NCBI GenBank assembly: GCA_036229005.1
Contig: JAZAMN010000074.1
Coordinates: forward strand, 1 to 46,555
Length of the DNA: 46,555 nt
Origin: Myxococcota bacterium
Lineage (GTDB): Bacteria > Myxococcota_A > UBA796 > CAJQPC01
Direction: 5' to 3'
Under the pieces are notes generated by a model. That model ran no database searches and had not been told where the DNA came from. It worked only from the letters and a program-made list of their open reading frames with translations. A program made the translations under genes and the position numbers. Positions 44,054 through 46,555 of the stretch are shown piece after piece. Positions within the stretch are counted from its first letter, which is position 1, and every line of letters begins with the position of its first letter.

Positions 44054-45709
<1,656 letters not shown>

Positions 45710-45771
45710 TCAGACCTCCTGTAGGGGTTCGCCGAGCCCGTGCCCGGCGGGATGTGATGAAGAAGGGGTGT

Positions 45772-46059
45772 TCAGCCGATCACGGCCAGGATGTCCTTCT
45801 CGCGCAGCACGATGTGCTCGGTGCCGTCGAGCTTGAGCTCGTCACCGGAGTACTTGCCGAAGAGGATCTTGTCGCCGACAGCGACGCTCATCTCGGTGTA
45901 GCCACCGTCCTTCTTGCGGCGGCCGGGACCCACGGCGACCACCTCGGCCTCCTGGGGCTTCTCCTTGGCGGACTCGGGGATGAAGAGGCCGGAGGCGGTC
46001 TTCTGCTCGGCGGTCACGCGCTTGACGAGGACGCGGTCGTAGAGAGGGCGGAAGGACAT
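45772..46059 (-). CDS. groES: Co-chaperonin GroES
   Basis: [33 protein letters not shown] at 46059 with GGAG RBS. Confidence 0.98.
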
Positions 46060-46109
46060 GAAGACTCCATTGGGACCCGCGGGGTCCGTGAGGGGTTGGA
46101 ACGTTCGGG

Positions 46110-46137
46110 CAGGTAGGCACGCCCCTACAGGCGTCAA
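46110..46137 (-). promoter_or_regulatory. Putative sigma70-type promoter of groES-groEL
   Basis: TTGACG-N16-TACCTG about 50 nt upstream of groES; the -10 is imperfect. Confidence 0.4.
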
Positions 46138-46204
46138 GCAGCGATCGCGCAAGTGGGACAGAGATGGCGTGGTTTTTTTGCCCTCCCAGAACCCGGTTCA
46201 ACGA

Positions 46205-46217
46205 TTTCAATTGGTTG
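46205..46217 (+). promoter_or_regulatory. Putative IHF-binding site
   Basis: TTTCAATTGGTTG matches WATCAANNNNTTR with one mismatch, immediately upstream of the -24 box, in a locally AT-rich patch. Confidence 0.45.
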
Positions 46218-46223
46218 CACGTG

Positions 46224-46239
46224 TGGCACGGGGGTTGCA
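46224..46239 (+). promoter_or_regulatory. Sigma54 (RpoN) -24/-12 promoter
   Basis: TGGCACG-GGGG-TTGCA is an exact match to TGGCACG-N4-TTGCW; predicted TSS about 46250. Confidence 0.8.
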
Positions 46240-46249
46240 TCACTCCCAG

Positions 46250-46386
46250 GCGAGGACACCACGGGTCTGATTCCCTGCCCTGACCTGGCCCGTGTTGAAC
46301 TCCGAGGAGCCCCGTCGAAATGGTTCGGCGGCTGTTCCTCGAAGCTTTACGGCGCGCACACCCTGGTGGGGGTGCGCGCTTTCTTT
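46250..46386 (+). ncRNA. Candidate sigma54-dependent small RNA (about 137 nt, three stem-loops)
   Basis: Bounded by the sigma54 box and an intrinsic terminator; SL1 46260-46294, SL2 46303-46341, SL3 46352-46379; no convincing ORF. Confidence 0.6.
46351..46386 (+). terminator. Rho-independent terminator
   Basis: GCGCGCAC-ACCC-TGGT-GGGG-GTGCGCGC followed by TTTCTTT. Confidence 0.8.
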
Positions 46387-46555
46387 GTATGGGGGTCTCG
46401 CGACCCCCCTGAGCCCCGGCGGAGCCGGGGCCACCCCCCGCGGGGAGTTCGGTCGGACGGGTGCGAGGCGTTCGGTCCTGCGCGTCGGCGCGGCTTTGCC
46501 GCTTCTTTGGCTTGGACCGACCGCCTCGGCCGCCCGAACTCCCGGGTCTCGGGCG

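Follow-up and report, generated by a model that had tools for sequence, protein, structure and literature searches.

A predicted sigma-54-dependent small-RNA family in one order of uncultured Myxococcota-like bacteria and its likely link to a lipoprotein-rich regulon

The window analysed here, 46,555 nt long, is the whole of contig C74 of genome G000 (6.4 Mb, 70% GC, 94% complete). Towards its right end, two ORFs on the minus strand span positions 44054-46059: groEL (44054-45706) and groES (45772-46059), both named from their sequences. A groES promoter-like element (TTGACG, then GTGCCTACCT) was recognized by eye on the minus strand at 46110-46138. Beyond it, a degenerate CRCGACA-N4-TGTCGYG palindrome at 46154-46171 is a predicted enhancer, that is, a bEBP site, 70 nt upstream of a sigma-54 -24/-12 box. 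This box is on the plus strand at 46224-46239 (TGGCACG at 46224-46230 and TTGCA at 46235-46239), and the exact TGGCACG-N4-TTGCA arrangement occurs once in the 6.4-Mb genome. Between enhancer and promoter lies a plus-strand IHF-like site (46205-46217), with one mismatch to the IHF consensus WATCARNNNNTTR. The box precedes a predicted small RNA of ~137 nt (46250-46386, plus strand), the start of which was placed from the box and the end from a T tract.

The predicted RNA is comprised of three stem-loops. SL1 (46260-46294, arms 46260-46267/46287-46294) presents a pyrimidine-rich loop of 19 nt, which holds a conserved motif, CCCUGCCCUGACC (46273-46285), with the order-wide consensus UCCGUGCCCUGACC and the core (G/C)UGCCC; this motif is likely a seed or a protein-binding site. 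SL2 (46303-46341) is a long stem, and the A-A-U-N-N-N hexaloop of the family is degenerate in this copy. SL3 (46352-46379), followed by TTTCTTT (46380-46386), is by its fold and by eye a likely intrinsic terminator (46352-46386). Its stem is bulged, and it is absent from the list of a simple terminator scan; a GC hairpin with a U-rich tail, the equivalent of SL3, is visible by eye in homologues of the same family. The remainder of the contig (46387-46555, the contig end) is a genome-specific palindromic repeat outside the RNA, of which BLAST found 24 pieces on 7 contigs, at most 98% identical. The repeat often occurs in tandem pairs and breaks this contig; contig C62 starts with its last 64 nt.

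When 46250-46390 was folded, the three hairpins formed with an energy of -68.8 kcal/mol (z -4.37), and none of 200 shuffles was as good. The first-pass annotation had proposed an IHF-like site, a sigma-54 box and three hairpins for an RNA of no known family, and each of these elements was recovered where it had placed them. Compared with Rfam 15, region 46250-46386 obtained chance scores only and was matched by no family. The earlier claim that the unit holds no credible ORF also agrees with the gene caller, which finds no gene past groES on the contig. A small peptide was rejected as a candidate product, since by inspection the families share no start/stop pattern. Four metatranscriptomes, sparse and available as assembled contigs, left 46092-46351 uncovered and barely covered this organism's groES, and are uninformative on expression.

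The same stretch might be read as chance hairpins, or as a piece of the adjacent repeat, with no gene at all: DNA of 70% GC folds readily, the palindromic repeat abuts the T tract, and no metatranscriptome contig covers the RNA. This reading has to contend with the copy number of the two parts, since the genome has one copy of the RNA part and the repeat begins at 46387, right behind the T tract. It must also contend with order-wide conservation, covariation and a phased enhancer, each of which is described below, and we consider it hardly credible.

Homologues were collected by several routes. Twenty loci, one of which is the window itself, were fetched by groES similarity; 15 of them contain the exact 10-mer TGCCCTGACC, preceded at 37-58 nt by a sigma-54 box, and as groES alone was used to pick the loci, this count is not circular. 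A pattern scan of a genome collection returned at least 119 loci, mostly chance matches; among 139 loci, 28 distinct elements had groES, groEL or dnaK in their flank. In total, 60 homologues were collected. They represent six or more families within a single order of uncultured, Myxococcota-like genomes; several of these 60 curated copies are near-identical relatives, and two of the family labels are guesses. The gene is mostly single-copy, and two genomes carry two copies (L231/L232 and L239/L449). Six of the loci (L029, L032, L037, L041, L067 and L076) bear the titles Proteobacteria, Enterobacterales or Cognaticolwellia, yet hold this order's groES-sRNA locus, and look mislabelled.

Searched against 150 genomes of the class, a sequence-only model built from 25 copies had matches in 73 (E<=0.01). 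By family, matches were found in 18/19 genomes of f1, 6/9 of f2, 11/36 of f3, 2/2 of f4, 9/20 of f5, 1/9 of f6 and 17/26 of f7, and weakly in 8/28 genomes of other orders. On inspection, the borderline matches within the order were real, having the box, the enhancer, the motif and SL2, except for L244. Of the weak matches outside the order, six were inspected: L204, L246, L313 and L314 were coding or were without motif and enhancer, and L205 and L247 had no box. In a sample of the phylum the model matched 14 of 150 genomes, four of them weakly and outside the order, and no true match outside this order was seen in the samples searched. We also searched the open literature, mostly titles and abstracts, together with the accessible part of the review PMC8538405; neither the RNA nor the enhancer was described in this material. 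No regulatory RNA earlier described for this lineage turned up in the literature searches. We regard as real a predicted sigma-54 small-RNA family that is order-wide and absent from Rfam.

Next, we sought to determine which parts of the RNA are conserved. Over the 60 copies, the loop core is (G/C)UGCCC, with G in 43 and C in 17, its invariance being by construction, as the script required the core. Conservation of the flanking positions, C at -2 and -1 and UGACC after the core, ranges from 78 to 97%, and the C form of the core occurs in f1 alone (17/60). The unpaired probability of the loop core is 0.98 here, and its family mean is 0.70 versus 0.40 for whole RNAs. When the motif was held unpaired, an enclosing stem of at least 8 pairs was obtained in 57 of the 60 homologues. 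Because the length of the SL1 loop varies from ~11 to >50 nt, SL1 is missed by plain alignments; in six close homologues it has 13 consensus pairs, three of them with compensatory change. In SL2, ten f1 copies show compensatory change at 11 of 13 pairs and eleven f3 copies at 12 of 16. The SL2 loop is 6 nt long in 49/60 copies, with A43/A35/U41 at its first three positions; it is mostly an A-A-U-N-N-N hexaloop, closed by a G-C (27) or a C-G (11) pair. The AAU-hexaloop stem is likely a protein or nuclease contact. In several families SL2 itself bears the U tail and SL3 is missing, and many homologues in other families have two hairpins only; a terminator-like hairpin is present in most copies. 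The conserved promoter and covarying stems that the first-pass annotation had proposed to look for are found in relatives, in the box and in the pair changes of SL2 and SL1. We conclude that the locus is very probably a real ncRNA gene, with a +1 predicted from the box, and that it would be transcribed from the sigma-54 promoter.

The genomic position of the gene differs between lineages. In 39 of the 60 copies it lies between groES and a divergent dnaK, oriented toward groES; in two more, one of the groES/dnaK neighbours is visible. Four copies, all of this genus, are inverted along with promoter, IHF-like site and terminator, and 15 (f3 and part of f7) are found away from groES/dnaK, with promoter, loop motif and SL2 intact. 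Divergence from groES, which the first-pass annotation had presented as a trait of the unit, is therefore a genus-level inversion seen in 4/60 homologues of one genus. The groES synteny it had proposed to check holds for the 41/60 copies that adjoin groES and/or dnaK and does not hold for the 15/60 located elsewhere. Since the gene is inverted here and relocated in 15/60 copies, it is an independent gene that moves as a unit and not a leader; a leader or attenuator of groES or dnaK is ruled out by the inversion and the relocations. The RNA gene has groES/dnaK or unrelated genes as neighbours, with no bEBP gene seen among them.

The frequent proximity to chaperone genes raises an alternative in which the locus acts in cis: sigma-54 transcription, the bound activator or read-through would modulate groES/dnaK, and the RNA would be secondary. 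The 41/60 copies in the ancestral layout are what it would predict; three copies (L009, L012 and L038) have no clear U tail and stop immediately ahead of the groES promoter, and in the window 15 nt separate the predicted enhancer from the -35-like hexamer of groES. An activator site near the groES promoter had been foreseen by the first-pass annotation, and 46154-46171 is such a predicted site. The inversion and the 15 relocations, however, leave promoter, loop motif and SL2 intact, most copies have the terminator-like hairpin, and groES and dnaK retain their own promoters. The groES promoter-like element of the window is distinct from the promoter of the RNA, and, judged by eye, most of 20 loci have the same element ahead of groES. 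Action in cis would also leave the conservation of the loop unexplained, and we judge it improbable. Apart from this question, groES and dnaK have a common promoter type, TTGACG-N16-TA(C/T/G)CT with a GTGCC extension, and by eye no CIRCE element was seen.

To evaluate the enhancer, we used a matrix trained without this genus. It gave 46154-46171 a score of 7.1, the best in the stretch, at -70, the commonest enhancer distance in the family. CACGAC-N6-GTCGTG, allowing 2 mismatches, is present upstream of 18 of 28 copies, while shuffles gave a mean of 0.13 and a maximum of 2. The enhancer score exceeds 7 in 54/60 homologues, 19 of them used to train the matrix, and at 2/30 sigma-54 promoters of a control gene. 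Enhancer-box distances cluster at 58-62, 68-71, 79-82 and 89-95 nt, about one helical turn apart. An IHF-like site with at most one mismatch was found in 16/60 homologues, among them 10/17 in f1, the window's own family (shuffle mean 1.2, maximum 5). The genome encodes 23 bEBPs, and none of the 23 was assignable as the cognate one by gene adjacency.

The enhancer is not confined to the RNA. In this genome, the matrix score exceeds 11 at 9/82 sigma-54 promoters versus 5/2070 other upstream regions. With a rough gene caller and a rough lipobox rule, a lipobox was found in 8/12 genes behind sites scoring >7, compared with 5/48 at other sigma-54 promoters and 655/5344 genome-wide. The pattern of enhancer plus box had 29 matches in 31 genomes, versus 2 for the reversed pattern. 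Order-wide, 37 distinct full-box sites were left after removal of 6 rows without a -12 element; ORFs follow 30 of the sites, 20 of these ORFs with a lipobox, and non-coding RNAs follow the other 7, three of this family and four of a second family, RNA-B. The RNA gene thus shares a predicted enhancer with mostly lipoprotein genes, a predicted envelope regulon. A Pfam family was assigned to 5 of 26 regulon proteins (a beta-propeller, vWA twice, a carboxypeptidase-regulatory and an Ig-like domain). Because these matches are few and none of the five is a classic envelope-stress protein, the inducing signal is a guess.

A conserved group-2 sigma factor gene, the control gene above, was rejected as a conserved regulon member, having the box in 29/30 genomes and the enhancer in only 2/30. 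This RpoS/RpoD-like gene (G000:C50:60867-61745, minus strand; L250-L279) nonetheless points to a conserved cascade from sigma-54 to a group-2 sigma factor. A separate observation concerns murA (G000:C31:25716, plus strand; L359-L388), the first gene before dnaG/rpoD-like genes, which has a sigma-54 box in about two-thirds of 30 genomes from the order.

Two further sigma-54 RNAs resemble the one described here. RNA-B (G000:C11:249830, minus strand; L140) is ~90 nt long with its terminator and lies upstream of a YegS-like kinase gene. Its copy of the enhancer is the strongest. Conservation of RNA-B extends over f1, f3 and f4; its homologues (L216-L221, L442, L444 and L446) have a conserved CCUCACCGCAUC stretch in f1, and GUGCC is present in 6/9 RNA-B copies. 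RNA-C (G000:C71:116480, minus strand; L155) is ~175 nt long, with a four-hairpin junction plus terminator, and occurs in 15/101 genomes, of f1 and f5 (homologues L389-L403). It has GUGCC in a loop in 15/15 copies, a hexaloop like that of SL2 and with the same variants, and an upstream palindrome that is related to the enhancer and low-scoring. Neither RNA-B nor RNA-C has an Rfam match. AAU hexaloops are rare among the intergenic hairpins of this genome (6/287). GUGCC is a short 5-mer spotted post hoc, and the sibling link is therefore suggestive only. We also observed a purine-rich sigma-54 non-coding region of >450 nt (G000:C24:183752, plus strand; L154 and L320-L324), which is conserved in f1 and has no Rfam match; a second copy of its 5' part is found in the same genome at G000:C8:97287 (plus strand).

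Our target searches revealed no conserved mRNA partner among the candidates. In this genome, no perfect complement of the 13-nt loop motif exists outside the RNA gene, and the best leader duplexes (-31.4) are no better than those of shuffled seeds (-30.0 to -34.5; single genome). Leaders of groES, groEL and dnaK have sites in 0/44, 0/42 and 4/41 genomes, respectively. Likewise rejected were ffh, whose site is not kept among 30 loci; murA, with a leader site in this genome alone among 30; the leader of the group-2 sigma factor (1/30); and DUF2330, whose site looked promising in 3 genomes and was then found in 4/49, the gene family itself being absent from f2 (0/7), which has the RNA. No conserved complementary site was detected in 23 gene clusters of the fetched loci. 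A search for patterns overlapping the Shine-Dalgarno sequence gave mostly coding noise in the 30 of ~260 matches inspected. Seed complements precede 15/84 lipoprotein genes, which ranks 8th of 42 permutations and is no clear enrichment. The proposal that the loop pairs with Shine-Dalgarno sequences was not borne out: the complement of (G/C)UGCCC is GGGCA(C/G), which is no such sequence, and no conserved target was found. One candidate target is an 81-aa HTH-like protein (G000:C6:130865-131110, plus strand; L543), 76% identical between f1 and f2; in two genomes, stretches complementary to the loop lie at similar positions, 30-40 nt ahead of its start.

Base-pairing trans sRNAs usually, though not universally, have Hfq or ProQ as chaperone. 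Neither was found in this 94%-complete genome, in a search in which the positive controls worked, and CsrA and RapZ were not found in it either. As GUGCC loops recur in two other sigma-54 RNAs, recognition by a protein fits as well as pairing does. The RNA would then be a decoy or scaffold, with the GUGCC loop and the AAU hexaloop recognized by an RNA-binding protein or nuclease adaptor, as might be expected from the 15/15 GUGCC loops and the same hexaloop in RNA-C, the 6/9 copies in RNA-B, the rarity of AAU hexaloops and the target searches above. We hold this possible, though on the unlikely side. CsrA and RapZ were not found, and each RNA has one copy per motif, unlike multi-site sponges. 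Moreover, f1 changed the core G to C (17/60), and a conserved single-stranded stretch of 10-14 nt in a loop of variable length resembles a seed; such a stretch is the usual picture of an sRNA seed. The stronger version, in which three sibling sigma-54 RNAs, with the GUGCC loop and two with the AAU hexaloop, are all read by one undescribed RNA-binding protein, is doubtful; it would amount to a new post-transcriptional circuit between an exported-lipoprotein regulon and its outputs, in a lineage in which Hfq, ProQ, CsrA and RapZ were not found.

The explanation we prefer is a base-pairing trans regulator within the envelope regulon, to which we assign a probability of about one in two; the pairing with mRNA is itself an inference. 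That the exposed loop is under selection while the stems vary freely supports it. An activator bound to the palindrome, aided by IHF bending, would likely open the sigma-54 promoter, and one enhancer-binding protein would likely switch the RNA on together with the lipoprotein genes. The ~137-nt RNA would end at SL3, and its exposed (G/C)UGCCC(UGACC) loop would probably pair in trans with short mRNA sites, with no involvement of Hfq or ProQ. The RNA may then be the non-coding arm of the predicted envelope regulon, induced, we presume, by envelope or export stress. By analogy with sigma-E sRNAs, the sign of regulation would most likely be repression.

The family is order-wide, its promoter, enhancer and regulon were mapped by sequence, and its lineage is known from metagenomes only. 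A sigma-54 activator would be tied to a regulon that is rich in lipoprotein genes and includes two or more small RNAs, resembling envelope-stress regulons under other sigma factors. With C in the core of f1 and G elsewhere, candidate targets could readily be examined for covariation, and the loops common to the RNAs could serve as bait for an RNA-binding protein in this genome, where Hfq, ProQ, CsrA and RapZ were not detected.

The closest known system in appearance is Pxr (RF01812) of Myxococcus xanthus (Cystobacterineae). In the available part of PMC5568312, Pxr is a sigma-54 sRNA of Myxococcus with three predicted stem-loops and a C-rich first loop, and its sigma-54 promoter requires a bEBP (available parts of PMC5568312 and PMC5684412; PMC11928866 was also used for the Pxr comparison). 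The sigma-54 box, the three stem-loops, the C-rich first loop and the U-tailed last hairpin are common to both RNAs, and the lineages are related (PMC5568312, same part), as would be expected if the new RNA were a distant homologue of Pxr. We consider this highly improbable, given the model score, the loop, the enhancer and the synteny. The Rfam Pxr model (gathering threshold 80 bits) has no match in the window at E<=10, while in the positive control it found 9/9 Pxr loci at 111-129 bits; it matched 0/61 genomes of the phylum sample, in a run without a control match. Conversely, Pxr loci score no more than 8.5 bits with the model of the new RNA, and this through the promoter. The Pxr loop is UCCCCCCCA, as against (G/C)UGCCC(UGACC) in the new family, and the enhancer of the new family is absent upstream of nine pxr genes (best score 1.3). 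Pxr follows pxrK-pxrR, whereas the new RNA is not beside an activator gene, belongs to another lineage and would be part of a multi-gene lipoprotein regulon.

Other systems are comparable in organization. CsrB/RsmY-type sponges have multiple GGA loops; the new RNAs have, apart from the terminator, at most one GGA-bearing hairpin top each, and CsrA was not found. MicA and RybB are sigma-E-dependent and Hfq-dependent, with known omp targets; the new RNA is under another sigma factor, and its likeness to them is one of analogy. GlmY and GlmZ are sibling RNAs with a common hairpin, in which GlmY mimics GlmZ. In the sigma-E system, too, an envelope regulon has a small RNA for its non-coding arm (available part of PMC1804206). 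For Desulfovibrio vulgaris, the accessible portions of PMC4641369 and PMC3333781 give four sigma-54 ncRNAs, and in that of PMC4641369 the bEBP DVU1419 controls envelope-stress genes plus an ncRNA; this regulon likewise combines a bEBP, envelope genes and an ncRNA in a deltaproteobacterium, a likeness by description and not by sequence. In Flavobacterium, sigma-54 controls quality-control and exported proteins (PMC9723704, in part). GlmY/GlmZ of enterobacteria are sigma-54-driven and envelope-linked (PMC4152352, in part). The new RNA differs from them in that it has no Rfam match to them and that RapZ and Hfq were not found in its genome; it is like them in being a predicted sigma-54 sRNA with a likely tie to the envelope and putative siblings that share a common hairpin.
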